64,000 nt of DNA from a virus. Where the stretch lies: positions 16,198-80,197 of the IMG/VR virus record IMGVR_UViG_3300045988_081432. One strand, given 5' to 3'. A program made the translations under genes and the position numbers. Positions 248 to 57,100 of the stretch are shown here, in pieces (the first letter of the stretch is position 1; each line of letters begins with the position of its first letter). A model generated the notes under the pieces. The model was not told where the DNA came from. It made no database searches and worked only from the letters and a program-made list of their open reading frames with translations.

Positions 248-781
248 ATGAACTTCACAAATCCAAGTCCTCTTATTGGAGGTATGCGTTCTCCACAGAA
301 TGTTATGCCAGTAGATGTAGGAGGAACACAAAATCAATATCAGAATCAATATCAAAGAAATATGTCGCCAGAACAGTGGGAGTATGTACAACAGGTTCGT
401 AGAACTGGTTATGACCCAAATATGATGCCTCAAGTACAGCAACCACAACAGCCAGAACAGTCTGACCCTTATAATGATTTTATTACAGAGTTTAATCAGT
501 GTTCTAACGTAGTTCAGGCAAGTATATTAGAAAATCCTGAATTTAAACAGTGCATGGCTGAATGTGACAAAAAGATTCAGGCAACTATGGAGGCTCTAGT
601 ACGTCCACAGGTTATGCAGACACAAGATGGTCGTGTAGCTTTCGAGAGGTTGTTAGCGTCTTTCCGTGGTGTCAGAGACCAAGCAAAGCAGCAAGAAGCT
701 CAGAATATGCAAAGAATACAAGCGTTAATGAATGATGACGTTGTTCGTAAGCGTATTGAAGAGTTAGAGAAGAATAAGTGA
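248..781 (+). CDS. hypothetical protein with a Q/N-rich N-terminus
   Basis: 177-aa ORF with an ATG start after a purine-rich RBS. It contains a QNQYQNQYQ repeat. I recognise no domain. Confidence 0.55.
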   Translation: MNFTNPSPLIGGMRSPQNVMPVDVGGTQNQYQNQYQRNMSPEQWEYVQQVRRTGYDPNMMPQVQQPQQPEQSDPYNDFITEFNQCSNVVQASILENPEFKQCMAECDKKIQATMEALVRPQVMQTQDGRVAFERLLASFRGVRDQAKQQEAQNMQRIQALMNDDVVRKRIEELEKNK

Positions 782-791
782 GGTGCTTGCT

Positions 792-1091
792 ATGATTTCT
801 GATAAAGAACTTTTTAAACAGATGGCCGACCGTGATGTTGTAAATCTATACCGTTATCTTATTTACAATCTTGCTGGTGGTACGAGTATTGCTACTTATG
901 CAAGTTTGTTTGAAGATAAGATTTTGGGATATGCTAATATTGGTGTGGATAAAGCCTGTGATTGGCTGTTTGGTAAAGATGTCGGTTGTGACATTGACGA
1001 GGCGGCTGATATCGCACAAGCTGTTGTTTCTGATAAGATTGAAGAATACCGCAAACGTGTTAAAGAACAACGTGCGGCTAAAAATGCGTAA
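792..1091 (+). CDS. hypothetical protein
   Basis: Track ORF 783..1091. ATG 792 lies 6 nt after a GTGAGGTG RBS. It is co-directional with and tightly packed against its neighbours. Confidence 0.55.
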   Translation: MISDKELFKQMADRDVVNLYRYLIYNLAGGTSIATYASLFEDKILGYANIGVDKACDWLFGKDVGCDIDEAADIAQAVVSDKIEEYRKRVKEQRAAKNA

Positions 1092-1136
1092 TAACATTGT
1101 AACATAATTGATAGTCCTAATAAATAGGTGATTATT

Positions 1137-1505
1137 ATGAGATGGCCTATCGTGACCGTTACATCACTTGATAGCTCTGCTGCTGGTGTGGACGTATTAA
1201 AGGCAAATCCTATATATACTATAGAAAGTTTGCCCTATCCAAGACGCTATTATTATTTTGCCTTACTCATTAAGGTTGGTTTTGAATTTAATGATAATAA
1301 GTCTCTCTTGCTGACAGACAATGATGAAGTCAACAAGTATCACCTTGTTGACCGTCTTGGCAATGCAGTCCTTGCTTCTCAGGCTATTGGGTACTCTCAG
1401 AGCCAGAGATTAATGTACTGTATGTATGACGATGTAAAGAAAATTGTCCGCGTTCTAAGTCCTCTAGCTCCTACTGATTATTATATTGAGGGTTGGCTTA
1501 CTTAA
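1137..1505 (+). CDS. hypothetical protein
   Basis: Track ORF 1128..1505. ATG 1137 follows a TAGGTGA RBS. The 19-nt initiation region 1122-1140 is identical to 5810-5828. Confidence 0.55.
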   Translation: MRWPIVTVTSLDSSAAGVDVLKANPIYTIESLPYPRRYYYFALLIKVGFEFNDNKSLLLTDNDEVNKYHLVDRLGNAVLASQAIGYSQSQRLMYCMYDDVKKIVRVLSPLAPTDYYIEGWLT

Positions 1506-1528
1506 TAATATAATAAGGAGTGGAAGGA

Positions 1529-2065
1529 ATGGTATTAAACAACGGTATTGCCCCATGCGGTACGATGTCAAGATGTTGTTGCTGTAATATGCGGCTTATT
1601 TGTGCTAAATCCCCTTACTGTGTTATAAATTCAGGGAGTGGTTCTTCTGATAAGAAACTGGAAGAGATTGAGAATCTTATCCAGCAATTAATCCAGTCGC
1701 AAGCACAAGCACTTGCTGACCTTGAAACAAAAGCTACTGCCGCTCAAGCTAGTTTAAATACAATTACTGCTAATATAGCAACATTGCAAACGACTAGTGA
1801 TAATTTAACGACAGCATTTGGTGAATTTGCACAAGATACAAAAACTAAGCTAGACGAAATCTATGCTAAAGTAGAAAATATACCAGCGACCAGTACAACT
1901 TCTGTCAATGATTTAGATACACCGATTGATGTAGATTCTTCTGATGTATCAGAGGATGATTCAAAATCACTTACTGTATTAAAACCAAAAGAAACAGAAG
2001 ATACTATTCTGGTTGAAAAGAAAGGCTTATTTGGTAAATCCAAATGGGTAGAACAAAAGAAATAA
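1529..2065 (+). CDS. hypothetical coiled-coil protein with an N-terminal Cys cluster
   Basis: ATG 1529 follows AAGGAG. The N-terminus reads ...CGTMSRCCCCNMRLICAKSPYC, followed by a long heptad-like Q/A/L/T region. Confidence 0.55.
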   Translation: MVLNNGIAPCGTMSRCCCCNMRLICAKSPYCVINSGSGSSDKKLEEIENLIQQLIQSQAQALADLETKATAAQASLNTITANIATLQTTSDNLTTAFGEFAQDTKTKLDEIYAKVENIPATSTTSVNDLDTPIDVDSSDVSEDDSKSLTVLKPKETEDTILVEKKGLFGKSKWVEQKK

Positions 2066-2272
2066 TTTTGAGTTAAATTTTAGAAATTATAGACCCTTTA
2101 GTGAGTATAAGTTATTGTACTTAGTAAAGTGTCTATAATATTTTGTTATAGACATAATTTGAAATTTAACTTATAGGTGTGCGCCCGTATGTGCATGAAA
2201 GGAAAACATTATGACATTTGGTAAAAATGCGAAGAATAATCACCTTTATATTTATAAGGAAGGTGATGTAGT

Positions 2273-2458
2273 ATGAAGTATGAGAAAGAAAAATATTTCT
2301 CTTGTTATTCTCCTAATCTTAAAGAATATCTGGAAAGAAATGGATTTGAACCTATTACTTCGTTTGTACACATCAGAGAGAATAAGACTTGTTGGGTATT
2401 TGAGAAAGTGCCTGAGCTATCTATATATCTTGAACAGTGGACTCGCAATCGCAAGTAA
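2273..2458 (+). CDS. small hypothetical phage protein
   Basis: 61-aa ORF with a GGAAGGTGA RBS 6 nt upstream of the ATG. The overlapping alternative-frame ORF 2280..2465 has no RBS. Confidence 0.45.
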   Translation: MKYEKEKYFSCYSPNLKEYLERNGFEPITSFVHIRENKTCWVFEKVPELSIYLEQWTRNRK

Positions 2459-2850
2459 AGGGTAAATTATATGAAAAATATTGTAAGAAATTTTCTGTTG
2501 CTATCGTAGTATTTGTGACTACATTTATCACAGTTTATTATTCTGTTGTGTATGCAACAAAGAAACAGATTGTATTTGATGGTTCTGATATTCTAATAAT
2601 TATTTTCTTTGGCTTACTATCTTTGATGGTCGTGTTTATGCTACTTTATATCAATTCTAAATTAAACTCATTCTCTAATGCTCTATCTGATATTTCTAAT
2701 AAGATTGATATATCAGAAGAAAACATGATAAATTTAGAAAAGAGTACGCAGAGAATTATATTAAAGGAAGTAAAAGAGAATAGGGAATTTAAGGGAAAAA
2801 TTTTAGAAAGGATTGAGCATGAAGAGAAATCCGAACAGCAATCGGAGTAA
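2437..2850 (+). CDS. membrane protein with two hydrophobic helices and a coiled-coil tail; start uncertain
   Basis: 137-aa ORF. It has only a GTG start and no clear RBS. It contains copy 1 of the 76-bp repeat, which encodes FSNALSDISNKIDISEENMINLEKS. Confidence 0.45.
   Translation: MDSQSQVKGKLYEKYCKKFSVAIVVFVTTFITVYYSVVYATKKQIVFDGSDILIIIFFGLLSLMVVFMLLYINSKLNSFSNALSDISNKIDISEENMINLEKSTQRIILKEVKENREFKGKILERIEHEEKSEQQSE
2670..2745 (+). repeat. 76-bp perfect direct repeat, copy 1 (inside CDS 2437..2850)
   Basis: Identical by hand alignment to 3092-3167. Confidence 0.9.
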
Positions 2851-3100
2851 AAGATGGGTAGAAAGAAATTGCCTATCCTCTGATAGATGCGTGTCTTATG
2901 TAAAGGATTTATGTGAAGCTTATGGCATTAAATATAAAATTTCTGGCGATAAGCTTTTTGTGGATTCTGATGGGATTTCCTATCGGGTTTATCCTGACTA
3001 TGAAAATATATGTATAATTGCAGTAAATAAAATAACTGGTGAGAAAAAATGGTATGACGGAGATTCATGTTGGGTTGACTTCATATTAGATATTCTCTAA
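2819..3100 (+). CDS. hypothetical protein carried between the two 76-bp repeat copies
   Basis: ATG 2819 follows a GAAAGGA RBS (the track starts at TTG 2813). The stop TAA 3098-3100 lies inside repeat copy 2. Confidence 0.5.
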   Translation: MKRNPNSNRSKRWVERNCLSSDRCVSYVKDLCEAYGIKYKISGDKLFVDSDGISYRVYPDYENICIIAVNKITGEKKWYDGDSCWVDFILDIL

Positions 3101-3167
3101 TGCTCTATCTGATATTTCTAATAAGATTGATATATCAGAAGAAAACATGATAAATTTAGAAAAGAGT
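3092..3167 (+). repeat. 76-bp perfect direct repeat, copy 2 (not in an expressed frame)
   Basis: Identical to 2670-2745. In the frame equivalent to copy 1 it is preceded by TAG 3087-3089. Confidence 0.9.
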
Positions 3168-3168
3168 C

Positions 3169-3197
3169 TTGACAACTTCTGTATGTTGTGCTATATT
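3169..3197 (+). promoter_or_regulatory. sigma-A type promoter with an extended -10
   Basis: TTGACA at 3169-3174, a 17-nt spacer, and TATATT at 3192-3197 preceded by TGc. It lies 49 nt upstream of ATG 3246. Confidence 0.7.
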
Positions 3198-3245
3198 AAC
3201 AATGGAAGCAAATAATTCCATAAAATAGTACAAGGAGAAGTCGTT

Positions 3246-3743
3246 ATGAGTGTTCCACTAAGTTTGTTAATTTATAATCCAATTGAAGCATATATCTTGA
3301 TTTTGTTATGTGATGTTATTGCCGAGAATGACACAAAGTTTACCATTAAAAGAGCATTACTTTTGTGGGATTTTGGTGCGACAAATTTGTTTATCCAGCT
3401 AGTTCCGTATATTTGGTATGGGAAATGGTTCTTTGCAATTTTTAATGTTTCTGTGAATTATATAATAATACCATTTTCTATCATGTATTATTACAGAATT
3501 GTGTCTTGCCGCATAGGTTATTTTAGATGTTTTATTTCCGAATTAATCAATTGTTTGTTTATAATAATCATATCTAATATATTTGATTTGTTAATAGATA
3601 AATATGATATGTTCTTTTCAAGAAGTATATTTCACGAATTTATATCAAATATGACTATATTTTTCGTGCAAATTATACTATATTCTATTATAAAACATAG
3701 GAGATTTTTATATGAAAAACATTTTCAAAACTTTCGCAAGTAA
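3246..3743 (+). CDS. polytopic membrane protein of unknown function; first gene of the agr-like module
   Basis: 165 aa with about five hydrophobic segments. Its stop overlaps the start of the peptide ORF at 3712, which suggests translational coupling. Confidence 0.6.
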   Translation: MSVPLSLLIYNPIEAYILILLCDVIAENDTKFTIKRALLLWDFGATNLFIQLVPYIWYGKWFFAIFNVSVNYIIIPFSIMYYYRIVSCRIGYFRCFISELINCLFIIIISNIFDLLIDKYDMFFSRSIFHEFISNMTIFFVQIILYSIIKHRRFLYEKHFQNFRK

Positions 3744-3840
3744 CTGTGTTGAAAAAGCCTTTACTTCTCTCGGTCACTACCAGCCTAAGATGCCAAATTC
3801 TCTGATGGAAAAGGCTCAGAAGGAAAATAAGGAAGACTAA
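3712..3840 (+). CDS. 42-aa AgrD-like autoinducing-peptide precursor candidate (absent from the ORF track)
   Basis: AGGAG at 3699-3703 lies 8 nt before the ATG. The translation is MKNIFKTFASNCVEKAFTSLGHYQPKMPNSLMEKAQKENKED. It has an amphipathic leader, a short core and a charged tail with a YQPKMPNSL motif that resembles clostridial AgrD tails. Confidence 0.45.
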   Translation: MKNIFKTFASNCVEKAFTSLGHYQPKMPNSLMEKAQKENKED

Positions 3841-3884
3841 TCTTCCCTTATCCTTATATTATAGACATTGTAGACTTTAATATA

Positions 3885-3918
3885 GGGAGTCAGTCTTTTG
3901 GCTGGCTCCCTTATTTTT
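3885..3918 (+). terminator. rho-independent terminator-like hairpin
   Basis: GGGAGTCAGTC / GGCTGGCTCCC forms an 11-bp stem with two G-U pairs, followed by TTATTTTT. Confidence 0.55.
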
Positions 3919-3941
3919 GTGTAATAAAGGAATATTCTGTT

Positions 3942-4547
3942 ATGGATATTTTTAGATATATTGAAGACGTATCTTATAAACTCGGTTTAAAAGTTGCAAA
4001 TTATTTCCATGAAGACAAGGATGGGATTGAAGAGACACAATATGGGATGTTCGCTATTTTGAGTTTCTTGTTTGAGTTTGGAACTGGACTTATTATATCT
4101 CTTATTTTTGGATATGTCAAGTATTTTCTTGTATTTCAAATTACCTATTGTTTTCTACGTTCTGTTTGTGGTGGAGAACATTGCAAAACATTTGCATCTT
4201 GTTGGGCAGTAACAAACATTATCTCATTTGTTGGAAGTATGATAGCTATTTTATTATCCGTAAACAGTATGTTTGTAATGATTGGAGTTATTATTACATC
4301 TCTGGCATCTGTTGATATGTTTTATATTATTCCGAAACCAAGCGAAAATTCTCCTAGTAGAGGGAGTAGAGATATCGAGTTTAAAAGACGCTATATTGAG
4401 GGGACTTGTGTGTTAATTTTCTTAGCTTGTATTTTGGCGTTTTTTGATATAAAGTTTGTTTCTGCTTCTATTTGCTCTGCTTATATTATGTGTTATATTA
4501 TGCTATCTAAATATGGCGAAAAATTTATGACTCTATTTAAGTTTTGA
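3942..4547 (+). CDS. agrB: AgrB-family membrane peptidase (AIP-processing enzyme)
   Basis: 201 aa and polytopic. It carries an FLRSVCGGEHCKTFASCW motif with His80 and Cys87 spaced 7 residues apart, as in the catalytic His/Cys of S. aureus AgrB. A basic cytoplasmic loop PKPSENSPSRGSRDIEFKRR is present. Confidence 0.75.
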   Translation: MDIFRYIEDVSYKLGLKVANYFHEDKDGIEETQYGMFAILSFLFEFGTGLIISLIFGYVKYFLVFQITYCFLRSVCGGEHCKTFASCWAVTNIISFVGSMIAILLSVNSMFVMIGVIITSLASVDMFYIIPKPSENSPSRGSRDIEFKRRYIEGTCVLIFLACILAFFDIKFVSASICSAYIMCYIMLSKYGEKFMTLFKF

Positions 4548-4553
4548 TTAATT

Positions 4554-4640
4554 AAAGACCAGAGGATAGGGATATTAAGCTGCTATCGCCCGTTGTTAGG
4601 AGATACAGGTTCTTTGGCTTGCCTGTCTGGTCTTTATTAT
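4554..4640 (+). other. long structured intergenic element, possibly a complex terminator or small RNA
   Basis: AAAGACCAGA (4554-4563) pairs with TCTGGTCTTT (4626-4635), plus a GG/CC extension. The stem encloses two possible inner hairpins and is followed by a T-rich tract. Confidence 0.3.
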
Positions 4641-4677
4641 TTATAATTGTAGAACCAGCTTTAAAGAGGTGCGTTCT

Positions 4678-4944
4678 ATGATTATAAATGATTTAGCAAC
4701 AATAGCAAATTCTGATTTAATATCAGGAGCTGCAAACATTAGTCAATTTATAAATGTTTATCAAGCGACTAAAGGTGCGACATCATCTCAGTTAAATACA
4801 GAGCTTATTAAGCAAAACCAACATATTGAAAATAAACTTGACGAACAAACGAATATGTTGCTTGAAAAACTATTGTCTGAATTAAAGATTATAGAAGAAC
4901 AAAATATTGAAATAATTAAACTGTTGGGTGGCGGCGTCAAATGA
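4678..4944 (+). CDS. hypothetical protein, paralogue of the next gene
   Basis: ATG 4678 follows an AAAGAGGTG RBS. Its N-terminus MIINDLATIANSDLISGAANI and Leu/Ile-rich C-terminus are shared with 4941..5165. Confidence 0.5.
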   Translation: MIINDLATIANSDLISGAANISQFINVYQATKGATSSQLNTELIKQNQHIENKLDEQTNMLLEKLLSELKIIEEQNIEIIKLLGGGVK

Positions 4945-5165
4945 TTCTTAATACTAATGCAGAATTAGGTGGATTAGATGCCCTTGGTGTTGCAGATACA
5001 ATTATTGCTTCATTATTATTAAATTATTCTGAGAAATCTTATAGGTTAAATCTCGATAATACCTCAGAAAATAAAAAAGTTATTTCTCTATTAAACGAAA
5101 TAAATGAAAATGAAAAAACTATTATTTCTTTATTACAAAGAATAATAGAAGATGATAAGCATTAG
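4941..5165 (+). CDS. hypothetical protein, paralogue of the previous gene
   Basis: Shares a 4-nt ATGA overlap with the upstream gene. The sequence is MILNTNAELGGLDALGVADTI...LLQRIIEDD. Confidence 0.5.
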   Translation: MILNTNAELGGLDALGVADTIIASLLLNYSEKSYRLNLDNTSENKKVISLLNEINENEKTIISLLQRIIEDDKH

Positions 5166-5306
5166 TCTTGTCTTATCGGTAAAATAATCCAGACTAAATA
5201 AACGAGTGACGGTTCTGACTCGTCGTAAAAATAAAAATTGACCGAGCGATGATTCACGACAGGGAATAAAAGGGGTCAAAAATATTATAGAAAGTAGTGG
5301 ATATCA

Positions 5307-5777
5307 ATGGGTGTATTGCAAATTATTATTAATATTTGCTCTACTTTTGGTGTGTCTGGACTCCTTTTGTTCTTTGTGAAAAGGCACTATGAAAAGAAAG
5401 ACGAAGCTTTAAAAGAGGGAAAGCGGGAGAGAAGAGAAATCAAGGATGCGATTGATAAAATTGCTAAACAAAACGAAGAGCAGTATGCAATGATTGCATT
5501 TCAAAAGGATAAGATAAGTTCTCTTTCTGATGATGTTAAGGTTTTAAGAGAGCAAGGAAATCAAAATTCACAAGCGGATAGAGATATACTTCGGGATGCG
5601 ATGTTAAGGACATATCATAATTGTTATGAAGTCAAAGGTTGGATTTCTGTTAATGACTTAGAAAGTTTTCAACACATGTTTGAGAGCTACACAGCGTTGC
5701 ACGGTAACGGAATGATGCCGTCTGTTCATGAAAAAATTTTAAGTCTACCAACTATTCCACCTGAGAATAAATCTTGA
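5307..5777 (+). CDS. membrane-anchored coiled-coil protein
   Basis: 156 aa with an N-terminal TM segment (ICSTFGVSGLLLFFV), then a charged coil and a globular C-terminus. Confidence 0.55.
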   Translation: MGVLQIIINICSTFGVSGLLLFFVKRHYEKKDEALKEGKRERREIKDAIDKIAKQNEEQYAMIAFQKDKISSLSDDVKVLREQGNQNSQADRDILRDAMLRTYHNCYEVKGWISVNDLESFQHMFESYTALHGNGMMPSVHEKILSLPTIPPENKS

Positions 5778-5824
5778 ACATTTCATTAAATTATAAAATC
5801 ACTTTTAACAAATAGGTGATTATT

Positions 5825-6154
5825 ATGACAGTAAATGAATCTAAAAATATTATCCAAAAACTAATTAAGTATTCTATTTGTGAACTTGAAACGGCAGAGT
5901 GTTACCAAGAACTAATGGGCTGTGTTGAAGACTCTTCTATGTTTTCCAAATTCAAAGAGTTTGCAAATGAAGAACTAACTCATTACGAGTATGATTTGTC
6001 AACCGCAATGGTTATGGCTCAAAAATTGAAAGACAATGGTGATATTGCGGATGTTGATGAAATGATTAGTAATATCTATAAAGAGAATGAGACAGACTGG
6101 AAGAATAAGATTGTCTGGAAAATTGCTAACACTAAGTTAAAAACTTCTCGCTAA
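5825..6154 (+). CDS. hypothetical helical protein
   Basis: ATG 5825 follows a TAGGTGA RBS; the track starts at GTG 5816. Confidence 0.5.
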   Translation: MTVNESKNIIQKLIKYSICELETAECYQELMGCVEDSSMFSKFKEFANEELTHYEYDLSTAMVMAQKLKDNGDIADVDEMISNIYKENETDWKNKIVWKIANTKLKTSR

Positions 6155-24148: not shown

Positions 24149-24668
24149 ACAAAAGTTCAAAGAGAGTATTCCTAAAGATGTGGCAGTAATTAGACTGCAT
24201 GACAGCGCAAGTGGTTTTGGGCAAGATAGCAAGTCAACAAGATTTTCTATGAAATCTCCATTTGATTTTATCTTGTTCAAAACTCCTTGTATGTATTGTC
24301 TGGAATTAAAATCAACAGACAAGAAAAGTTTTTCTTTTGAACGTGAGAAACCAACGAAAGAAAACCCTACTAAACGAGAAATCCATTGGCATCAAATTCA
24401 AGCTCTTACTGAGTATAATAAGTATTGTAATTGTATATGTGGTTTTGTGTTAGACTTTAGAAATGATGGAACTTATTTCTTGAGTATCAAAGATTTCAAT
24501 AAATTTAAAGAAAAATCAACTAAAGTTTCAATAAATATTCAGGACTGTATTGCGTATGGTGCTGTTCAAATAGATAGAGAATTAAAGAAAAAATATTATA
24601 GCTACGATGTAGCAAAGTTATTAGATAAGATTGGAAGTGACGAAATTGGGAAGAAGAACTGTATATAA
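24126..24668 (+). CDS. recU: RecU-like Holliday junction resolvase (PD-(D/E)XK nuclease)
   Basis: The FDFILF...CLELKSTDKKSFSF...HWHQIQAL...GFVLDF...YFL pattern matches the RecU core (D...E-x-K...HQ). ATG 24126 is preferred over the track start at 24099. Confidence 0.65.
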   Translation: MNVGKIFEQKFKESIPKDVAVIRLHDSASGFGQDSKSTRFSMKSPFDFILFKTPCMYCLELKSTDKKSFSFEREKPTKENPTKREIHWHQIQALTEYNKYCNCICGFVLDFRNDGTYFLSIKDFNKFKEKSTKVSINIQDCIAYGAVQIDRELKKKYYSYDVAKLLDKIGSDEIGKKNCI

Positions 24669-25686
24669 TAGAATTTATACAGAAGAAATCTGGGCAAAGG
24701 TTAATGAAGACAATAAGAACTTGTTGAAAGATTATCTTGCATATAAGACTACTGGCGGTCGTTCTCCACAGACGATTTATCAATATGAACAAATGATTCG
24801 TCTGTTCTTCTGTTGGAATTATTTGCATAATAAAGATACGTTCTTTGTGGATTTGAAGAAGCGGCAACTTGTTAGTTTCTTTAATTATGCAATTACAGAA
24901 ATGGGATGGTCTAGTAATAGAATCTCTACTATTAAATCATCTCTATCTTCTATGTCAGATTATATTGAAAATGTTCTTGATGATGAGTTTCCTGATTTTA
25001 GAAATATTGTTGTTAAACTGGAAACTCCTGTAAAGCAGACTGTTCGTGAAAAGACTGTTATGAGCGAAGAGCAGATTCAAGATTGTCTTGATAAATTGGT
25101 TGTCGCCAAACGGTATCAGGCGGCTTGCTATCTTGCTCTTGCTGTCAGCTCTGGTGCAAGAAAAGCAGAACTGATTCAATTTAAAGCAGATTGGTTCACT
25201 GACGAAAATATTGTTTACGGCTGTATGTGGAAGACCCCTGAACAAATCAGAACCAAGGGAAAGGGTAAGCAAGGCAAGTTGCTTCATAAATTTACATTTA
25301 TTAAGTCTTTCAAACCATACTATGAACTTTGGATGAAATATCGCAAAGAAAATAATATTGAGAGTGAATGGCTATTTATTGTAAAGAACGATGACGGCAC
25401 TTATCGTCAAGCAAGTATTTCAACAGCAGATAGCATTTGTAGAACAATTTCGGCTGTTTCTGGCCTAGATTTTTATAGCCACTGCTGTAGGCATCGTTAT
25501 GTTACAATGATGAAGGAAGCGAAGTTACCTGATGATGTTATTGTTGCGTTGGTAGGATGGCAGAGGGAAAGTGGTTCGGTTTTAGTGAACTTATATTCAG
25601 ACATTGACGTTGCAGACACGCTTGATGAATACTTTGATGAAAACGGTATCAAAGAAGTAAAGACTGGCACTGTAAGCGATATTTAA
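24631..25686 (+). CDS. int: tyrosine recombinase/integrase; start codon uncertain
   Basis: N-terminal SAM-like core-binding region. The catalytic region contains ARKAEL (Arg), HCCRHRY (HxxR), LVGW and NLYSD (Tyr). Confidence 0.8.
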   Translation: MEVTKLGRRTVYNRIYTEEIWAKVNEDNKNLLKDYLAYKTTGGRSPQTIYQYEQMIRLFFCWNYLHNKDTFFVDLKKRQLVSFFNYAITEMGWSSNRISTIKSSLSSMSDYIENVLDDEFPDFRNIVVKLETPVKQTVREKTVMSEEQIQDCLDKLVVAKRYQAACYLALAVSSGARKAELIQFKADWFTDENIVYGCMWKTPEQIRTKGKGKQGKLLHKFTFIKSFKPYYELWMKYRKENNIESEWLFIVKNDDGTYRQASISTADSICRTISAVSGLDFYSHCCRHRYVTMMKEAKLPDDVIVALVGWQRESGSVLVNLYSDIDVADTLDEYFDENGIKEVKTGTVSDI

Positions 25687-28117: not shown

Positions 28118-29355
28118 ATGGCGCAATCTCAAAGTGATATTTTTAGTTTTCTAATTACACCTGAATTTGATACCAAAGGTGTCACTGACAGCGGAAAATA
28201 TCTTGAAGAAGAAGTCAAGCAGATAGCAGAAAAGATATCAAATCAGATTAGCGAAGTCATGGGGAGGGGCTTTTCTTTCCCGAAAAATTTCAAAAAAGAT
28301 GATATCAACGAAGTCACAAAACTAGTTGAAAGTTTAGGTGGCAGTGTAAAAAGAACTGGCGAATATATTACATCGTCTTTTAAGGATGCAAGCGGAACAA
28401 CTGTAACGCTAAAGCAAAATTTAAAAGACGCAATAGATGTAGCAGAAGCAGAAAGCCTAAAGGCTGCCAAAAATATTCAAGAAGTAATCAACATAAGAAA
28501 AGAGTTTGAACAACTAAGAACTTCTACCGCTACATATTCTGGCGCAGAGCAAACCAAAGAGCAAAATCAACTTGAACAAAATATTATAAAAAGTATCGAA
28601 GAACAATATAATTACCGACTAAAAATTATTGATGCTCAGAATAGTGGCAACAAAATTCAAGAGAACTATTATACAGAGCTTTTAAATATTGCAAAAGGCG
28701 AAGAACAGGTATACACAATTCAATATAACGGTTCTCAGAATAATATAAAATTTAAAAAACAAGAACTTGCACAAGAAGAACGACTCTATCAAAAAAAATC
28801 TGATTCTGTAAAACAAGAAAATGAACTCGTTAATGCTATTAAACAGTATGCAAAACAATATCAGACTGTCAAGCAATTAGAGAGCAAAGGTCAACAAAAC
28901 ACTCAGGCTTATACTGATGCTAAAAATGCTTTACAGCAGCTAACAAATACTTTAACAACGTATGGTGTTAAAGTTGTAACAAGCTCCGACGGTACAACAA
29001 AACTTGTAGCACAACAAAATTCAATGGCTGACAGCTCCAATAAGGTCAAAACAGCGTTGGACAATGCCAATGGCAGTTTAGCAAAAGCTGATACTGCACA
29101 AAATTCCATATCGAAATCTATTCAGTCTAGTGTAGAGAATTTTATTAAATATCAGGTGGTTATGGAAGCCATCAACAAAATCACTAGCGAATTTACATCT
29201 GCAATTTATGATATGAACCAAGCCATGACACAAGTTCGTATGGTTACAATGGGTAGCTATGAAGATACTGTAGCATTGGCTGATAGTTATACTAAATTGG
29301 CAAAGCAACTTGGTACTACTACGACCACGGTTGCAGAAGGCGCAGATGCTTGGCT
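28118..29355 (+). CDS. tape measure protein, exon 1
   Basis: Coiled-coil N-terminus. The conserved TMP core begins at ...LAKQLGTTTTTVAEGADAWL, after which the frame breaks. Confidence 0.8.
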
Positions 29356-29723
29356 TAAATGTCTAGGTCAAGTAAAATCTCTCTAATTGCTGGAAAGTCC
29401 TTAGAGCTTTGATAACCAAGTTATTATAGTGATATAATAATGGCTGAACTAATCATTCAGGCATGGTAAAATAATCGAAGATTGGATAATCAGCAGCCAA
29501 GATTCTTAAATATTTATAATAAAGCTATTAAAATATTTCAATAGATATGATATAATATTTAAGAATAAGGTTCATCGACTAATTGTAAGGGCAAGTGCTC
29601 TGAAACGGGAGATACCTTGTTAAATTTAACAGATAAAGATATAGTCAGAACTTATGTAGAAATACATAGAAAATCCTATATGGAATCTTTTGATAAGTGG
29701 CGATTATTAAGAGTAACAAATTG
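29356..29723 (+). ncRNA. group I intron without an ORF in the tape-measure gene
   Basis: P1 pairs exon UGGCUU (29351-29356) with AGGUCA (29365-29370), placing U29355-G29366 as the wobble at the splice site. Omega-G is G29723. P7 pairs GACUA (29577-29581) with UAGUC (29642-29646), preceded by AAGAUA. This matches the Tetrahymena-type J8/7-P7 core. Confidence 0.75.
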
Positions 29724-30299
29724 AAGACAGGGTTATAATGCTCAAGAAGCAATGGAGATGCTAAAGCAGTCAACTACGTTGGCTGTTGTTGGTCAATTGG
29801 ACGCAGCTTCTAGCACTGACCAACTTACGGCAATCACAAAATCCTATAATGTAGCTGTAGAAGATACAAGCAAAATCGTAGATAAACTTGTTGCGGTTGA
29901 CTTAAATTATGCCGCTAGTACAGGTGAAATCTCTACAGCATTACAAAAAGTCGCTAGTTCTGCTGGACAGGCAGGGTTAGGGCTTGATAAACTAATCGGT
30001 CTAATTACAATTTCCGAGGAAAAGACTCGACAAGCGCCAGAAGTTATTGGTTCCGCTTGGCAGAGTATTATCGCGCGTATAGGTAAAATCACAGCAAAAG
30101 TAGATTTAGATGACCTTGTTGATGAAAATGGCAAGGTTGTGGCTACAATTAACGATGCTGATAAAGTTTTATCTAAATATGGTATCAATTTAGTTGACAC
30201 TAGTGGTAAAATGAGAGACATGGGAACCATTATGGACGAAATCGGTGCTAAATGGGGTCAAATGTCTACTCTTGAACAAAACCAGTTGGCTTATGTGGT
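29724..30299 (+). CDS. tape measure protein, exon 2
   Basis: The frame is open from 29725, upstream of the track Met at 29752. The spliced sequence reads ...ADAWL-RQGYNAQEAMEMLKQSTTLAVVGQLD..., which is the TMP core. Confidence 0.8.
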
Positions 30300-31335
30300 T
30301 TTAAGTAGCCACAATACGAAGTAATTCGTAGGTGTTTATAACACTACAACATTCCTATATCGGTGAACCCTAAGTTTGTACAAATAAGGGAATACCGAGA
30401 TAATTTTATTATGAAGGATGGTGGAAAAGGAATGGATTTTTATTCCTTGTCACAAGATGAAGTTTCAGTTATTTTAGGTGGGTTGCTTGGCGATTCATGT
30501 TATAAAAAACGAGATAACGTCATCGTATTTTCTCACTCAGCAAAACAAAAAGAATATTTGTCTTGGAAACATGATATATTATCAGATATCTCGTCTGATA
30601 TTCGCACAAGAGTAGTAGGAAAATCTATTATTACAGATGAAGAATTGGTTAATGTGTCATTTTCTACAAAAACAAATAAAAAATATCACTCCGATTATAA
30701 CTCTATAAGAACCCTAATATTTTCCAACGGTAAAAAAACAGTCAATAGAAAATGGCTTAATATGCTCACACCTTTATCATTGGCCGTTTGGTGGATGGAC
30801 GATGGGTGCTTGTCCGTTCATAAGAAAAAAGATGGCGCTATTTCAAGATTTGGTAAATTAAGTACAAATGGATTCTCATACGAAGAGCAAAAAATTATGA
30901 AGGATTATTTCAAGACGGTTTGGGATATTGATGTAAAAATAACCCCAGAAAAGGGAAATTATTTCTTGAGATTTACAGTCCCGAACTTAAAAAAACTATT
31001 CTTAATTATATATCCATTTGTAATGCAAGTGCCAGACATGATTTATAAGATAAATATGAAATATAAACTAGAAAAACTGAGTGATGACGACGAGTATAAA
31101 GTAATACAAACTATTATATACGATACTCTCGATAATAAAAAATCGTAACGACTAAACGAGGAATGCTCCTTATATCAAACACATCTCTTATTGTTGGGAT
31201 GTGTTTTGTTGTATAAGGATGAAAATATAGTCTGAACTATAAGGAAACTTATAGAAGAGCGGTCAAGTGTAAAGACACTTTTAAGGAGAACCGTTCTCGC
31301 CTATTTTAATAATAGGTCACAAAAGTAACAGATTG
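30300..31335 (+). mobile_element. group I intron carrying a LAGLIDADG homing endonuclease
   Basis: P1 pairs exon UGUGGU (30294-30299) with GCCACA (30308-30313), with U30299-G30308 as the wobble. Omega-G is G31335. P7 pairs GACUA (31150-31154) with UAGUC (31228-31232), preceded by AAAAUA. An internal ORF lies at 30363..31148. Confidence 0.75.
30363..31148 (+). CDS. double-motif LAGLIDADG homing endonuclease (intron-encoded)
   Basis: Two motifs are present, ILGGLLGDSCY and AVWWMDDGCL. The start may be an internal ATG near 30412. Confidence 0.8.
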   Translation: MNPKFVQIREYRDNFIMKDGGKGMDFYSLSQDEVSVILGGLLGDSCYKKRDNVIVFSHSAKQKEYLSWKHDILSDISSDIRTRVVGKSIITDEELVNVSFSTKTNKKYHSDYNSIRTLIFSNGKKTVNRKWLNMLTPLSLAVWWMDDGCLSVHKKKDGAISRFGKLSTNGFSYEEQKIMKDYFKTVWDIDVKITPEKGNYFLRFTVPNLKKLFLIIYPFVMQVPDMIYKINMKYKLEKLSDDDEYKVIQTIIYDTLDNKKS

Positions 31336-44203: not shown

Positions 44204-44333
44204 AATGATTATTTAGACGCTTTCGCTTGTTTTATCTAAATGGCTCCAAGATAAAACAGACTTTTTATATTTTGGGATTGTTTGTGCTGCGCCCGATGTT
44301 CTACTAGGCATTCGACGCTAGTGGAAAACGCTG

Positions 44334-44461
44334 ACTCTGGCAGCGGTTGGCGTGTTTTGTATGTTGGTGGTGATTGGAACGGTGGGTCGAATGCCGGTCT
44401 GTTCTATTTCAATGCGAACAATGATTCTAGCAACTCGAACTCGAACATCGGGGCGCGGCTA
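44334..44461 (+). repeat. DGR template region (TR)
   Basis: This is the invariant donor copy. It contains 25 adenines by hand count and 8 AAY codons in the frame equivalent to the VR. It lies directly upstream of the RT. Confidence 0.85.
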
Positions 44462-44560
44462 CTTGTTTATTCTCCGTTTATTATCGCACAAACTCTCCCG
44501 CACCACTTGGTGAAAATATTGCCAATTAGGAAGCGAATTAGTAGGTTTATTCTCGAAAAT

Positions 44561-45748
44561 TTGCGCGGCAAACAAGGAGATGTTTTTATTCCTAAAAGAA
44601 AAGGTTATTTATATGAAAAAATGCTAAATAAAGAGCAAATTCGCTTTATCATTCAAGAAGCGGCAAGAGGGAAAACAAATAGAAGAGAAGTTCGCCGTGT
44701 ATTGAAAAATTTAGATTTATATGTAGACAAAACATACGAGATGCTGGTTACGGAGTCGTTTAAGCCATCTGTCCCGCATGAAAAAGAAATCTATGACGTA
44801 AGCAGTCAAAAGGTCAGAATTATCAAAACAGTACCATTTTGGCCTGATGGAATTATGCATTGGCTTATTGTTGATGCTCTAAAACCTATCTTTATGAAAG
44901 GTATGTATGATTGGTCTTGTGCTTCTATTCCCGGAAGAGGCGGGGTAAAAGTCCAAAAGAAACTGCAAAAATTTATTAGAACAAGCAAAAAGGCTAAATA
45001 TGCCGCCGAATTAGATGTCTCGAAATACTATCCGTCAATATCTACTGATACCCTAATAGAATTATTAAGAAGAAAAGTAAAAGATAAGAAAATGATTAAA
45101 ATAGTTCAGGATATAGCGGAATCTTGCGGTGGAGGTCTAGCGATAGGATACTATATTTGTCAATGGCTGGCGAACTTTTATCTGGAATCACTAGACCATT
45201 ATATTGCATCTCTGCCCGGTGTAGATTGTTACACCAGATATATGGATAATATAACATTGATAGGGGCAAACAAAAAACTGTTACATGAAGCAAGAAGAAA
45301 AATAGAAATGTTTTTAAAAGATAAATTGTCATTAAAACTAAAGGGAAATTGGCAAGTATATAGATTATCTTTTACAAGAAAAGTTTCCCAAAAACACCTT
45401 CTTCTAGACAAAAAACAACAAAGACTAAGAAAACCTAGGTTAGTATCTGCTGTTGGATGTAGATTCGCTAAGACATATACTATTGTAAGAAAGAGAAATT
45501 TTCTACGTTTAACCAGACAAAGCAGAAAAATTCAAAAGAAGCAAAACAAACATTTAAAAATATCTTTTAACATGGCGACGGGTTTTATAAGCAGAATCGC
45601 ACAATTAACAAGGTGCGACAGTCAATATGCCAAAGAAAAATACGTTTATTCAATAAACATGAAGCAATTAAAGGAGGTTATCAGAAATGAAAGTAAACGC
45701 AAGCTGTGCTCCAAACAAAAGCTTTCGTGTAGAGGAAATCCCGAATAA
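44561..45748 (+). CDS. DGR-type reverse transcriptase; start uncertain (TTG 44561, ATT 44588 or ATG 44621)
   Basis: The N-terminus is KRKGYLYEKM...AARGK. RT motifs present are SIPGRGG, AELDVSKYYPSI, GLAIGYYICQWLANFY (a variant of the DGR IGxxxSQ motif) and RYMDNITLIG (motif C reads YMDN rather than YxDD). The track ORF start at 44282 is read-through of the TR. Confidence 0.8.
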   Translation: MRGKQGDVFIPKRKGYLYEKMLNKEQIRFIIQEAARGKTNRREVRRVLKNLDLYVDKTYEMLVTESFKPSVPHEKEIYDVSSQKVRIIKTVPFWPDGIMHWLIVDALKPIFMKGMYDWSCASIPGRGGVKVQKKLQKFIRTSKKAKYAAELDVSKYYPSISTDTLIELLRRKVKDKKMIKIVQDIAESCGGGLAIGYYICQWLANFYLESLDHYIASLPGVDCYTRYMDNITLIGANKKLLHEARRKIEMFLKDKLSLKLKGNWQVYRLSFTRKVSQKHLLLDKKQQRLRKPRLVSAVGCRFAKTYTIVRKRNFLRLTRQSRKIQKKQNKHLKISFNMATGFISRIAQLTRCDSQYAKEKYVYSINMKQLKEVIRNESKRKLCSKQKLSCRGNPE

Positions 45749-46348: not shown

Positions 46349-46370
46349 AGGACTTGGAAGTTGAGATTTG

Positions 46371-47312
46371 ATGAAAAATATTATAGATATTTCTTATGCT
46401 CAAGGTAAAATTTCTGATGCGCAATGGAAATATTTCAAAGAGAATCTAACTGGAATTATTATTCGCTTTGGTTATCGCGGGTATTCTAATGGGAATATAA
46501 AACTTGATAAATGCTTAGATTATAACGTATTTAAGTGCCAAGAATATAATATCCCGTATGGGTTATATATATTTTCTCAAGCCATGGACAAGCAAGAAGG
46601 TATTGAAGAGGCCAACGCAATAATCTCATCTGAATACTTCAATAATGCAACTCTCGGTATTTGGTTTGATTCAGAATTAGCCGATGATGGGAATGGTAGA
46701 GCAGATAACATTTCCGTTGAATCTCGCACAGAGGCAACAAAAGGATTCTGTGATACTATTATTCTTGCAAACAAGAAAACCGGAATTTATGCTTCTTCCA
46801 GTTGGTTCATTTCCAGACTAGATATGAGTAAACTGCAATACCCAATTTGGGTGGCACACTACGGGAATGATTATTCTTATAAAAAAAATGTTGTATTGTG
46901 GCAATACTCTAGCTCTAACCCTATGCTTATTCCGGGGTTTGCAAAACTTGACTGTAATAAGATTGTTGATGAATCTTTCTTTAATAATTCGAGTCCCGTT
47001 CTTGCTAAATCAAAGAAATATTTTATCCAACAAATTCAAAAAGCTCTCGGTGTTAAAGCGGACGGTATTTTCGGCCCAAAAACATTAGCAGCTACAATTA
47101 CAGTCAGCAAAACTAAGAATAGAAAGCATCCTGTTGTAAAAACATTGCAGGAATACTTGAATTATTTAGGGTATAACTGCGGTGCGGCAGACGGGATTGC
47201 TGGTGTTAAATTTGATAACGCCGTGAAACAATTTCAGAAAGAGCATGGATGTATTGTCGATGGAGAGCTAACAGCACAAAAAACTACTTGGAAAAGAATT
47301 TTAACAATTTAA
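46371..47312 (+). CDS. endolysin: GH25 muramidase plus PG_binding_1 repeats
   Basis: The N-terminal IDISYAQGKI...IIRFGYRG...IPYGLYIF matches the GH25 pattern. The C-terminus has two LGVKADGIFGPKT / GAADGIAGVKF peptidoglycan-binding motifs. Confidence 0.85.
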   Translation: MKNIIDISYAQGKISDAQWKYFKENLTGIIIRFGYRGYSNGNIKLDKCLDYNVFKCQEYNIPYGLYIFSQAMDKQEGIEEANAIISSEYFNNATLGIWFDSELADDGNGRADNISVESRTEATKGFCDTIILANKKTGIYASSSWFISRLDMSKLQYPIWVAHYGNDYSYKKNVVLWQYSSSNPMLIPGFAKLDCNKIVDESFFNNSSPVLAKSKKYFIQQIQKALGVKADGIFGPKTLAATITVSKTKNRKHPVVKTLQEYLNYLGYNCGAADGIAGVKFDNAVKQFQKEHGCIVDGELTAQKTTWKRILTI

Positions 47313-54171: not shown

Positions 54172-57100
54172 TTAGATATTTACAAGAACTTCATAGTTAG
54201 TTATGTGCCAATAATCTTTCTGTTTTTCAAGATGCTTACAGAGTATTACATCACCAACTTGAAATTCTTCATGGTAATTTTTAGAAGTAATAGTGTAATT
54301 AGATTGCTTACCACTACCAATACTCTGCGCCGTAATCTGCCTTGCCCATACTCTACCACTAGCCTTAGACTTTAGTGCTTTGACATCAAGGATATATAGC
54401 TTTGGTCTGTCTTCTTGCTTACCTGTTGCAATATCAACATAACCCATGTATTCTTTCTGAATTTCTGCTTTTTCTTTAATAGTCATAGGTTTGATACCTA
54501 ATGACATAATCAAAGTTTCACATTCGTTCAAAATTGCCATATTATCTAGTTGAGAATAGGATTTAGATTCTTTGCCAGCCTTAGTAGTAGAAACAGAATG
54601 TCTCTCTACAATCGCCCTTACGACATCACTGTTAGCTAGTTTTTCTTTTTTCAAAGTCTTTGCTGTACCAAACATATCATACATCTTAACAAGACGTAGA
54701 AGTTCTTTAGCATTGCCAAATTCATCAAAGAAATCTAGCTTAATAAGGATATCTAATTGACGGGAATTTACAGATGTCTTTCCGTAAATATCTCGTAGTA
54801 AATCTACAAAGGAATCATAATGGTTATCTCGTAGACTATATAAATCATCAGCACAAGATTGGTTCATAAATTTAACAGAACCAATGCCTTTGTAAATTGA
54901 ATTAGATTCTTTATCAACAAAATATTCTGCTTTTGAATACCTAAACTTTGGTTTCTTGATTTTTACTTTGATAGATTTTGCATATTCAGACGCCTCATTT
55001 GTCTTGTCTTCGTCATCAACAAAAATATTTAAGCAACAACAAATATATTCAAGAGGATAATAGTATCTTAACCAAGCACATTCATAAGATATAGACGTAT
55101 AACTAACTGCATGAACCAGAGAAAAACTATAACGAGTGGCATTTAGAACGCAACCAAGAAAAATATCCATAATCTCATCAGATTTTTCTTGAGAAAGTCC
55201 CAATCTAACCTTTCCGTTTTCCTCAAATCTCTGCTTGATAATTGGCAACTGTTCTTTTGTGCCAAGTTTTTTACCAATAATTTTTCTTAATTTGTCCGCT
55301 TCTAGGAATGTATACCCACAGAATTTCATTACGAACTCCATAATAGGTTCCTGTAGAATAGGATAACCCATTGTAGAAGCAAGTAAATCATCAATTTCCT
55401 TAACGCCACTATGATACCCAATGCCACTTACAGCATTATCGTAAACATCTTTTCCGCAAGGGCGAATTAAACCAGACACAAAAGTGATAATATCAAACTT
55501 TGTAATGGACGGATAATCATGGTGAATCCTACTCCAAGATGCGGGACTAAGAATTTTCTTGATAGTTTGTTCTCCATAATTACTATTCAACTGAAAAATA
55601 AGAGATGTATCATTCTTAATTGATTCAAAAACTTTATCATCATCGAAAGTAAGATTCTTTGGAGAAATACGTTCAATGCCAGCGACATCACAGCATTTAT
55701 TAATAACGCCAACATTATCAAGAGCGAGTTCATCCATCTTAACCCAATTCAGAGAATCAAGTTCTTTCATATTCAAGACGCAAACAGGGTATTCGTCACC
55801 AGCAAGGGTACAGATGCCAAGCTCTGATTCAATATCTCTATCTGCAACAAGAACACCAGAAGGATGGCTACCAAGAGAGGTGACAGTGCCTTGTACTAAA
55901 TCAACAATCTCAAATAGTTTTGGATATTTCTTACGCCAAGAGTCGTCAATTGTCGTTACCTTGTTTTCGCCTTCCGTTGCTTCATAAACCGCTTTTGCGA
56001 TTTCATCAACAATTTCAAGCGGCATATCAAGGCCGCGTCCAATATCACGAATAGCACCACGCAAAGCAATCGTGTTAAATGTAATAATCTCAGAAGTCTT
56101 AATATTAGGTAAATCCAAATGGTCTTTTAGCATCCAACGCTTAGTCGCATCACGGTCTTTTGAATACTGGTCTGTATCAATATCGGGAAGACTATACTTA
56201 GATTCGTCCATAAAGCGCCAAAAATGAAAGCCATATTTAAGAGGGTTAACTTCTGTTACACCAAGAGAATAAAGTGCAAGACTAGAGGCAGCAGACCCAC
56301 GAGCAGGGCCAGTATAGAATCCGTGGTCTTTTTCCCATCTGGAAATATAGTCTGCAAGGATAATATAGTCAACGGAATCAATGGCTTTGAATGTCTTAAA
56401 TTCATGATTAAGGCGGTTTCTTACGTCATCTTCTGAAAAACCTTCGCTCACAATAGAACCAACAGCCTGTGGGTTGAATAGCTTATCTCGCAGAATCTTT
56501 TCAGAATCATCATAAATCTTTGGAAATTTAAATGACGTATCAAGGGTAAATGGCTGTACCATATCAGCCATAACATTTGTGTTCTGAATCGCTTCAAGAT
56601 AAGCAGATTCAGGAAGTGCGTCTTGAATATGATATGCTTCTACTAGTTCATCATAGCTCTTCCACGTTAAATCCCACTGTGCTTCGTCATCATTAAATAC
56701 AACCCTCTTTCCAGCTTGGAGAACTTTTCTTGCCTTTTCTTGTAATTTATTCGCACAGTGGAAGTCTGTACCCGTAATTAATGGAACATTAATCTGCCTA
56801 CTTAGTTCGTAAAGATATTGGTTGTAAATCTTTTGCTTTTCTACATTATGATGTTGAATCTCTAAAAAACAACGGCCTTTGTTTTTGGCAAGAAATTTGA
56901 TAAATCTCTCTTTTAATTCTTCGTTTCCTTTACAAAGAACCGAGGCCACACACGCAGTACACACAATAATGTTATTACTTGTTCCAAGCAATTCTGCAAA
57001 AGTAATACGAGGAACGTAATAAAAATGTCCATCTTCACGATTATATGCACGACTCGACATCTTATTCAGTTCAAAAAATCCGTCTTTGTTCTTTGCAATC

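Follow-up and report, generated by a model that had tools for sequence, protein, structure and literature searches.

A polymorphic agr-type cassette of SPbeta-like gut phages with a candidate threonine-closed peptide and an orphan membrane-protein partner

In the agrBDCA locus of Staphylococcus aureus, the membrane peptidase AgrB, whose catalytic histidine and cysteine lie seven residues apart, acts on a precursor, AgrD, that consists of a leader, a five-residue ring and a charged follower, and the system is completed by AgrC and AgrA; a hypervariable specificity region lies between conserved flanks, and in staphylococci part of AgrB falls inside this block. In the fsr system of Enterococcus faecalis, the ring of the peptide GBAP is closed as a lactone via a serine hydroxyl, and fsrD, which has its own start, lies in frame with the preceding membrane-protein gene, that of the AgrB homologue FsrB, the FsrC kinase and FsrA regulator being present as well. 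Phages are known to use short peptides in arbitrium (AimP/AimR), where a linear hexapeptide is imported through Opp to reach a cytoplasmic TPR receptor. Among clostridia, chromosomal agrBD pairs that lack an adjacent two-component system, such as Agr1 of Clostridioides difficile, have been described (PMC8534292; for RgaS-RgaR, PMC10327067), and an S-to-N shift has been shown for clostridial cyclic autoinducing peptides (AIPs; PMC8251862). Phage-encoded agr genes have rarely been reported, as a preliminary description of the DNA studied here had noted; the accounts found centre on the C. difficile phage phiCDHM1, whose agr3 locus has the order agrC-agrB-agrD and for which transfer from a host was proposed (Hargreaves et al. 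2014, PMC3901668). Here, we analyse a three-gene cassette at positions 3169-4547 of a 64,000-nucleotide stretch of viral DNA, referred to below as the window (IMG/VR record IMGVR_UViG_3300045988_081432, positions 16,198 to 80,197), which is very probably an AgrBD-type peptide-making module with many discrete peptide types, and in which the precursor is tied to an orphan membrane protein that we call MEM.

All elements of the preliminary description are present at the positions it gave, and the features of the cassette are as follows.

3169-3197, plus strand: candidate sigma-70-type promoter, with a -35 hexamer TTGACA at 3169-3174, a 17-nucleotide spacer ending in TG and a -10 hexamer TATATT at 3192-3197
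3232-3237, plus strand: ribosome-binding site (RBS) AAGGAG of the MEM gene, 8 nucleotides ahead of the ATG, read off the sequence
3246-3743, plus strand: MEM, 165 amino acids, five predicted transmembrane (TM) helices, orphan family (AlphaFold2 and family alignments)
3271-3780, no strand assigned: hypervariable allelic block, taking in MEM from about codon 10 onwards, the leader and the ring codons (sliding-window nucleotide identity and pairwise protein identity)
3699-3704, plus strand: RBS AGGAGA of the peptide gene, 7 nucleotides ahead of the ATG, within the 3' end of the MEM gene
3712-3840, plus strand: predicted AgrD-type precursor, 42 amino acids, with leader M1-F17, predicted ring T18-S-L-G-H22 and follower Y23-D42 (YQPKMPNSLMEK...)
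3763-3777, plus strand: predicted ring codons Thr18-Ser-Leu-Gly-His22, Thr18 being the candidate nucleophile, with the new C-terminus predicted at His22
3884-3921, plus strand: terminator-like hairpin (12 pairs, loop TTTT) and T-tract in the gap between the peptide gene and agrB
3926-3932, plus strand: RBS AAAGGAA of agrB, 9 nucleotides ahead of the ATG, read off the sequence
3942-4547, plus strand: AgrB-family membrane peptidase/cyclase, 201 amino acids (Pfam PF04647)

The closest counterpart of this cassette, that of phiCDHM1, is likewise phage-borne and has AgrB and AgrD without AgrA. The AgrB proteins are homologous, the QPKMP-type followers of the two peptides are nearly identical (NQPKMPKSL there, YQPKMPNSL here), and the phiCDHM1 AgrD has no Cys and places a Ser in register with Thr18 here. 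However, phiCDHM1 encodes an AgrC histidine kinase and no MEM, whereas here MEM is present and no kinase was found; its gene order is reversed here (MEM, peptide, hairpin, agrB), with a putative attenuator inside the cassette; and its module lies beside the lysin and integrase region and has a hydrophobic leader, whereas the present one appears old and syntenic, is highly polymorphic and carries Thr at the ring position. With the S. aureus locus the cassette shares the seven-residue spacing of the catalytic His and Cys in AgrB, the division of the precursor into leader, five-residue ring (predicted here) and charged follower, and a hypervariable specificity region between conserved flanks, but it differs in that AgrC and AgrA were not found, Thr replaces Cys, the order is partner-precursor-agrB, the variable partner is a 165-residue protein without a kinase and AgrB lies outside the hypervariable block. 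Clostridial orphan pairs resemble it in the missing adjacent two-component system and in the type of follower; they are chromosomal, use Cys (rarely Ser) and are not known to have a MEM-like gene. The in-frame precursor with its own start in fsr recalls the MEM-peptide fusions described below, which have internal RBS-like runs, and its ring, too, is closed by a hydroxyl; there, however, the upstream in-frame partner is an AgrB homologue and a kinase and regulator are present. The likeness to arbitrium is one of function only, namely short phage peptides in many variants, each with a co-varying partner, in SPbeta-related phages; there is no homology, and here a membrane protein is the partner of what would be a ring processed by AgrB.

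The protein encoded at 3942-4547, which had been called AgrB from its signature and for which a Pfam comparison had been proposed, matches the Pfam AgrB family PF04647 with an expectation value (E) of 3.5e-24 and 85.6 bits (cut-off 23) over model positions 3-181 of 185, and NCBIfam PRK01100 with E = 1.2e-13, a score under the equivalog cut-off. It contains the signature LRSVCGGEHCKTFASCW, in which His80 (CAT, 4179-4181) and Cys87 (TGT, 4200-4202) have the seven-residue spacing that had been pointed out; in a profile alignment of residues 50-100 on residues 47-97 of S. aureus AgrB, the two fall on His77 and Cys84. Both residues, together with G77, G78, P131 and K132, are invariant across 13 divergent homologues that range down to 23% identity, so that neither of the two sequence outcomes named beforehand as speaking against AgrB occurred. 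The loop PKPSENSPSRG is likewise conserved. Homology to the phiCDHM1 AgrB is remote yet clear (hhalign probability 96.7%, 27% identity), and a search of Protein Data Bank (PDB) sequences with the AgrB profile returned nothing. Judged by its sequence, the 201-residue protein is a true AgrB, predicted to remove the follower and to cyclise the peptide.

The 42-residue open reading frame (ORF), which overlaps the end of the MEM gene by 32 nucleotides in a different frame, is present in all 32 complete related loci, and a search with a profile of the family retrieved 83 peptide clusters; a few public metagenomic phage records already name members automatically as 'AgrD' or 'cyclic lactone autoinducer peptide'. 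As a family the peptides match the NCBIfam model TIGR04223 (11 of 19 members, best E = 2.4e-7), which bears out the earlier view that the frame overlapping the upstream stop is AgrD-like. A follower of the form YQPK-x-P, after which comes SLMEK, occurs in 81 of the 83 clusters, and that of the window peptide, YQPKMPNSLMEKAQKENKED, contains four Lys or Arg and four Asp or Glu. When 12 follower codons were compared across nine loci, seven showed synonymous changes only and one a change of amino acid, and because these codons thus vary almost only synonymously the ORF appears to be translated and under purifying selection. A purine-rich site is retained in relatives at the position of its RBS. 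Lying in the +1 frame and having a strong RBS of its own, the peptide is not joined to MEM by programmed frameshifting, a possibility that was ruled out.

Within the peptide, a single threonine (Thr18 in the window) is kept in 83 of 83 clusters, whereas the four residues that follow it occur in 41 variants: the second of these positions is hydrophobic, the third is mostly N, G, S or A and the fourth mostly H, Y, F or W. At the start of the ring neither Cys nor Ser is conserved in the 83 clusters, and the invariant Thr occupies exactly that place. Cys12 was considered as the ring residue and ruled out, as it is not conserved across clusters; because Cys12 is variable while the Thr is invariant, Thr18 is the candidate nucleophile. 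From Thr18 to the Pro of KMP is 10 residues, which is also the distance from Cys28 to Pro38 in S. aureus AgrD-I. On these features the 42-residue ORF is an AgrD-type precursor, with a predicted five-residue, Thr-closed ring T-S-L-G-H.

In sliding-window comparisons with eight relatives, nucleotide identity is 90-100% on both flanks and drops to 40-70% only across about 3271-3780, a trough outside which AgrB lies. Pairwise comparison of 32 complete loci with 12 ring types gave MEM identities of at least 92.7% for pairs that share a ring and at most 71.5% (mean 44%) for pairs that do not. Even where the AgrB proteins are 92-100% identical, different-ring pairs (n = 101) have MEM proteins that average 45.5% identity and reach at most 53.9%, and the association between ring and MEM was equalled in 0 of 5000 permutations. 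MEM does not track the leader, since the loci L001 and L046 have identical leaders, different rings and MEM proteins that are 40.7% identical. MEM, leader and ring together form one swappable block, which resembles an agr specificity group except that AgrB is generic and MEM is the variable partner.

Natural variants of the block and its surroundings also occur. The MEM gene has a premature stop at codon 71 in locus L013 (3001-3500) and a frameshift near codon 83 in L018 (3001-3500), and in L030 (1601-2030) a deletion joins MEM residue 135 to the final residues of the peptide, most of which is gone. These could be real null or 'signal-blind' phages or sequencing errors; taken at face value, they suggest that the module is dispensable. 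An apparent deletion in L037 (2017-3614) was set aside as a palindromic assembly chimera, in which the reverse complement of upstream genes follows MEM residue 138. Directly after agrB, the close relatives L005, L006, L015, L017 and L046 carry an additional ORF of 418 amino acids, which in L046 has RRXRR and HNH endonuclease domains and which is missing from the window at 4548-4668. One of these relatives, IMGVR_UViG_3300045988_088154, has this ORF next to a cassette identical to that of the window, and because the window is without it the ORF looks like a mobile homing-endonuclease insertion polymorphism.

MEM itself had been described as a membrane protein with about five TM segments, and the AlphaFold2 model agrees, showing five long helices (predicted local distance difference test, pLDDT, 83.3; predicted template-modelling score, pTM, 0.77). 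In family alignments TM1 and TM5 are conserved and TM2-TM4 extremely variable, and polar residues in TM1, TM2 and TM5 stand out, with N11, E14 and N135 invariant and Q51 and E131 nearly so. Because the counts of Lys and Arg place the strongly basic C-terminal tail and loop 1 inside, we infer an N-out, C-in topology, under which the outer halves of TM1, TM2 and TM5 would hold N11/E14, Q51 and E131/N135, respectively. A HMMER profile search of 1.84 billion representative sequences returned 76 matches, all of 36-206 amino acids and with zero kinase fusions. MEM had no useful match in Pfam, NCBIfam, PHROGs or PADLOC, nor any to PDB sequences (profile) or PDB folds (AlphaFold2 model), and the sole return of a fold search in BFVD was an 'Uncharacterized protein' from the family of MEM itself.

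Several identities for MEM were tried and rejected. As a diverged AgrB it reaches an hhalign probability of 1%. A match to Peptidase_U4 (SpoIIGA) in one of 39 members (E = 0.0057) is put down to chance, a profile comparison with Bacillus subtilis SpoIIGA being empty, and matches to holins stay at chance level (E = 0.05-0.23, in one or two of 39 members); the GH25 endolysin of the window is at 46368-47312, about 43 kb from the cassette. CPBP/Abi, the family to which the staphylococcal protease MroQ belongs, does not figure among the 20 Pfam families that the 39 members match with an E of 1 or less, no peptidase or protease family is matched significantly by any of these members, and the family alignments contain no conserved His. 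About ten distant members carry the peptide as an in-frame extension of the MEM C-terminus. An RBS-like purine run stands ahead of the internal ATG in all three fused loci examined, so the peptide is probably also made separately in the fused forms. Near the MEM C-terminus, a conserved YEK is explained as the reading, in the other frame, of the peptide start (tATGAAAAa).

The three genes belong together across a phage lineage. The arrangement MEM-peptide-agrB occurs in 32 of 32 complete close loci and, either in this form or with an in-frame MEM-peptide fusion, in four distant lineages (L023, L025, L026 and L027) in which MEM is 19-29% identical to that of the window; MEM or the fusion is directly upstream of the peptide or AgrB in every locus examined, and both the non-canonical gene order and the phage context noted in the preliminary description are confirmed. 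The slot that the cassette occupies is constant, after homologues of the genes at 248-3100 and before homologues of those at 4669-6154 and YonJ/YonG-like genes. The relatives carry the YonJ, YonG, YonD, YomX, YomW and YomU families, which are SPbeta-type structural genes, together with a DnaE-type polymerase, a primase, RtcB, a dUTPase and a GH25 lysin, and one distant relative has a YonO-like polymerase of the RNA-dependent RNA polymerase (RdRP) family. Two scans of 185,579 reference bacterial genomes, one with the profile of MEM and one with that of AgrB, found no relatives and no prophage copy, and since neither MEM nor this AgrB clade turned up there, recent capture from a sequenced host is unlikely. 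GenBank's phage collection holds a single, unannotated relative (MT835481.1, from human faeces, 83% nucleotide identity), and the source samples, where named, are human-gut metagenomes. By its synteny the module is an old part of an SPbeta-like gut-phage lineage and not, as in phiCDHM1, a recent host-derived add-on.

No AgrC/AgrA-type pair was found, as had been noted for the window. The precomputed Pfam hits of close relatives, which span the greater part of the window and a further 10 kb upstream of it, include no HisKA, HATPase, LytTR or Response_reg, and a direct scan of the window ORFs found no kinase or LytTR family.

A possible course of events can be put together from these elements. 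Transcription from the promoter at 3169-3197 would, going by the sequence, cover MEM and the translationally coupled 42-residue precursor, and a smaller share of transcripts would pass the leaky terminator at 3884-3921 and reach agrB. By analogy with staphylococcal and clostridial agr, AgrB would recognise the follower YQPKMPNSLMEK and cut after His22, forming an acyl-enzyme at Cys87 that the hydroxyl of Thr18 would resolve to give the five-residue lactone T-S-L-G-H. Were the leader then removed right before Thr18, the ring would be tail-less and, by analogy with the S-to-N shift of clostridial AIPs, an O-to-N acyl shift could turn it into an all-amide cyclic pentapeptide. Because ring, leader and MEM share one hypervariable block while AgrB is generic, MEM is the candidate allele-specific partner of the peptide, through which infected cells could tell their own peptide type from 40 or more others. 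Three observations speak for a receptor role, namely the co-variation within the cassette, the invariant polar residues placed in the outer helix halves and the generic AgrB, and we tentatively propose that MEM is the cognate receptor or gate that replaces AgrC. The preliminary description had held that the phage would make or process a signal and not sense one; this may be too narrow, as MEM co-varies with the ring and could sense it. To the explanation as a whole, a self-contained multi-allelic cyclic-peptide cassette with MEM likeliest as a kinase-less receptor or gate, we assign a probability of roughly 0.4. Whether MEM would further amount to a new class of kinase-less receptor, and the cassette to a phage communication or kin-recognition system with more than 40 peptide 'dialects' that steers lysis timing, lysogeny or superinfection, we consider doubtful.

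A number of results weigh against this explanation. Taken singly, the window peptide scores 14.4 bits against TIGR04223 (E = 0.034), under the cut-off of 19 bits, and in the literature examined, where the ring nucleophile is Cys and, rarely, Ser (PMC8251862), no Thr-closed AgrD ring is described. Same-ring and different-ring pairs are not independent, because the loci are related, and the more distant phage L047 (AgrB 73%) shares the SLGH ring of the window although its MEM is only 45% identical, so a shared ring need not mean a shared MEM sequence. MEM has no output domain and no similarity to any known family, and as an AgrC-like sensor, a comparison that had been suggested for 3246-3743, it was rejected: profile comparison with phiCDHM1 AgrC gave nothing, and all matches among the 1.84 billion representatives were small proteins. 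The 17-residue leader has a hydrophobic moment of 0.26, equalled or exceeded in 1822 of 5000 shuffles (36%), and that it is short and not significantly amphipathic hints that the precursor reaches the membrane with the help of MEM. The translational coupling and the fusions in some lineages would be at least as much in keeping with a scaffold, processing enzyme, exporter or immunity protein as with a receptor. If MEM were such a biosynthetic or export partner, a role that we regard as possible and rather unlikely, it would hold the precursor for AgrB at the cytoplasmic face and then remove the leader and/or export the ring, and the peptide would be read by a host receptor or would block host agr. 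MEM would thereby stand in for MroQ (a CPBP/Abi membrane protease) and SpsB, which provide the second processing step of the S. aureus AIP (PMC9388083), and as a small polytopic membrane protein it could act on the product of AgrB. The overlap and translational coupling of the MEM and peptide genes fit such a partner, as does a leader of only 17 residues without significant amphipathicity; so do the roughly ten in-frame fusions, which with the C-in topology would put the precursor on the cytoplasmic side, where AgrB acts, although the RBS-like run ahead of the internal ATG means that the fusions may be incidental. The invariant intramembrane polar residues N11, E14, Q51, E131 and N135 are what a catalytic or transport site would have, but 0 of 39 MEM members match CPBP/Abi or peptidase families significantly, no His is conserved and MroQ is not known to be hypervariable. 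That no phage kinase or regulator was found among the relatives' Pfam hits or the window ORFs also agrees with a processing partner, and orphan agrBD pairs whose receptor is encoded elsewhere exist (PMC8534292 and PMC10327067). Yet a generic peptidase or exporter should read the conserved leader or follower and hence stay conserved as AgrB does, whereas MEM is 40-54% identical between phages whose AgrB is 92-100% identical, and it does not follow leader identity.

The same co-variation could have arisen in a toxin-immunity pair, the cyclised peptide being an antibacterial or anti-phage weapon and MEM its allele-specific immunity protein; SPbeta, to which the lineage is related through its Yon/Yom structural-gene families, carries sublancin and immunity genes itself. 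A discrete, co-inherited hypervariable peptide beside a small polytopic membrane protein is typical of bacteriocin-immunity cassettes, and the immunity-like gene comes first and would be co-transcribed. An immunity protein fused to its own toxin precursor would be odd, however, AgrD-type five-residue rings are known as signals rather than toxins, and the PADLOC defence library gave no match. Phages with a broken MEM and an intact peptide and AgrB, such as L013 and L018, would poison themselves, unless these are assembly errors or dead-end mutants, and we hold this explanation to be quite improbable. That the three ORFs are no unit at all, agrB being a stray host gene, the 42-residue ORF a product of chance and the membrane protein unrelated, is hardly credible: promoter-like matches are indeed no commoner than in shuffled sequence, the window peptide falls under the curated AgrD cut-off and the deletion in L030 shows the module to be dispensable, but the arrangement is kept in 32 close loci and in four distant lineages with MEM at 19-29% identity, the follower of the peptide is under purifying selection, and the fact that neither MEM nor this AgrB clade was found in 185,579 reference genomes makes recent capture from a sequenced host unlikely.

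Phage-borne agr genes are already known from phiCDHM1; it is the kinase-less, Thr-type, MEM-partnered and polymorphic module that appears to be new. In the literature on phage agr, Thr-type AgrD and gut SPbeta-like phages we found no description of a Thr ring, of a MEM partner or of pherotype-like polymorphism. The module is vertically inherited across a lineage of prevalent gut phages and comes as a set of discrete alleles, several dozen in number, which each go with an orphan MEM. Should its function be borne out, Thr-closed rings, whether lactones or all-amide cyclopeptides, would join the known products of AgrB, and agr-type systems would gain a third component; a channel for peptide-based phage communication or kin discrimination may also come to light in the gut, where we found no such system described. 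If MEM is indeed a receptor, the cassette would be a membrane-sensed counterpart of arbitrium in an abundant human-gut phage lineage. These ideas are testable, since the cassette is only 1.4 kb long, the masses of its predicted ring products are defined, with [M+H]+ values of 496.251 for TSLGH, 643.320 for FTSLGH and 714.357 for AFTSLGH, each 18 Da below the linear form, and natural allele swaps and knock-outs exist in metagenomes.

Two signals that had been proposed from the sequence would bear on expression of the cassette. The candidate host-type promoter at 3169-3197 matches the consensus at 11 of 12 positions, with a TG-extended -10, and is the top plus-strand match within 2000-6000. As a class, promoter-like matches in this AT-rich DNA do not exceed the number expected by chance (24 versus 23.1 +/- 6.0 in shuffles), and support for this one comes from its conservation and not from match frequency, both hexamers and the TG being kept in nine of nine aligned relatives while the spacer varies. 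In the 101-nucleotide gap between the peptide gene and agrB, the hairpin at 3884-3911, reported previously as terminator-like, has 12 pairs (7 G-C) and is followed by TATTTTTGTG. Terminator-like sites number five in the region against 0.8 +/- 0.9 expected, the pairing of this hairpin is preserved in relatives despite substitutions, and the distant loci L023 and L026 have non-homologous terminator hairpins at the equivalent position. The element at 3884-3921 is probably a leaky attenuator, its leakiness being deduced from the lack of a separate agrB promoter in the next 30 nucleotides.

Other sequence elements lie close to these signals. A perfect 76-nucleotide direct repeat is found at 2670-2745 and 3092-3167, with a spacing of 422 nucleotides; the first copy is inside an ORF of 137 amino acids (2437-2850), and the second spans the stop of a 95-residue ORF and ends 1 nucleotide before the -35 hexamer of the cassette promoter. 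Because the copies are 100% identical where related phages diverge by 5-10%, a recent duplication or gene conversion is suggested. On the minus strand inside agrB, at 4092-4120, there is a perfect 12/12 match to the promoter consensus (TTGACA-17-TATAAT), which faces the start of agrB and the peptide gene in antisense orientation, and a minus-strand terminator-like hairpin lies at 3848-3829. Each hexamer of this candidate promoter is kept in eight of nine relatives, but both overlap conserved codons; an antisense RNA of about 250 nucleotides across the 5' end of agrB is possible. The stretch after agrB, 4545-4660, was rejected as a structured RNA (fold z-score -1.13, no Rfam match).

Further features of the phage can be read from the rest of the window, in which no tRNA genes were found. 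The index of the assembly collection lists the 177-residue protein encoded at 248-781, upstream of the cassette, in 658 blocks, and the protein is about 50% identical even in distant lineages; its presence in so many blocks indicates that the phage lineage is very widespread in sequenced samples. A tyrosine recombinase (Phage_integrase) at 24631-25686 stands within the structural and tail gene block and not in a lysogeny module. A group I catalytic intron at 29313-29669 (Rfam RF00028, 69.5 bits) begins in the last 75 or so nucleotides of the ORF at 28118-29386 and ends just ahead of a PhageMin_Tail ORF at 29752-30324, and in a relative an ORF for a LAGLIDADG_2 homing endonuclease lies further downstream of the intron region. 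An RT-18 RNA motif at 44501-44579 (Rfam RF03021, 68.7 bits) is located inside a 488-residue ORF (44282-45748) with a weak reverse-transcriptase match, and distant relatives encode Mtd_N-type proteins; together, these suggest a diversity-generating retroelement that may act on a tail or receptor-binding gene. The DnaE-type polymerase of the window (54172-57369, 1065 amino acids) is free of inteins, and that of L022 (4519-9057, 1512 amino acids) contains an intein with a LAGLIDADG endonuclease.

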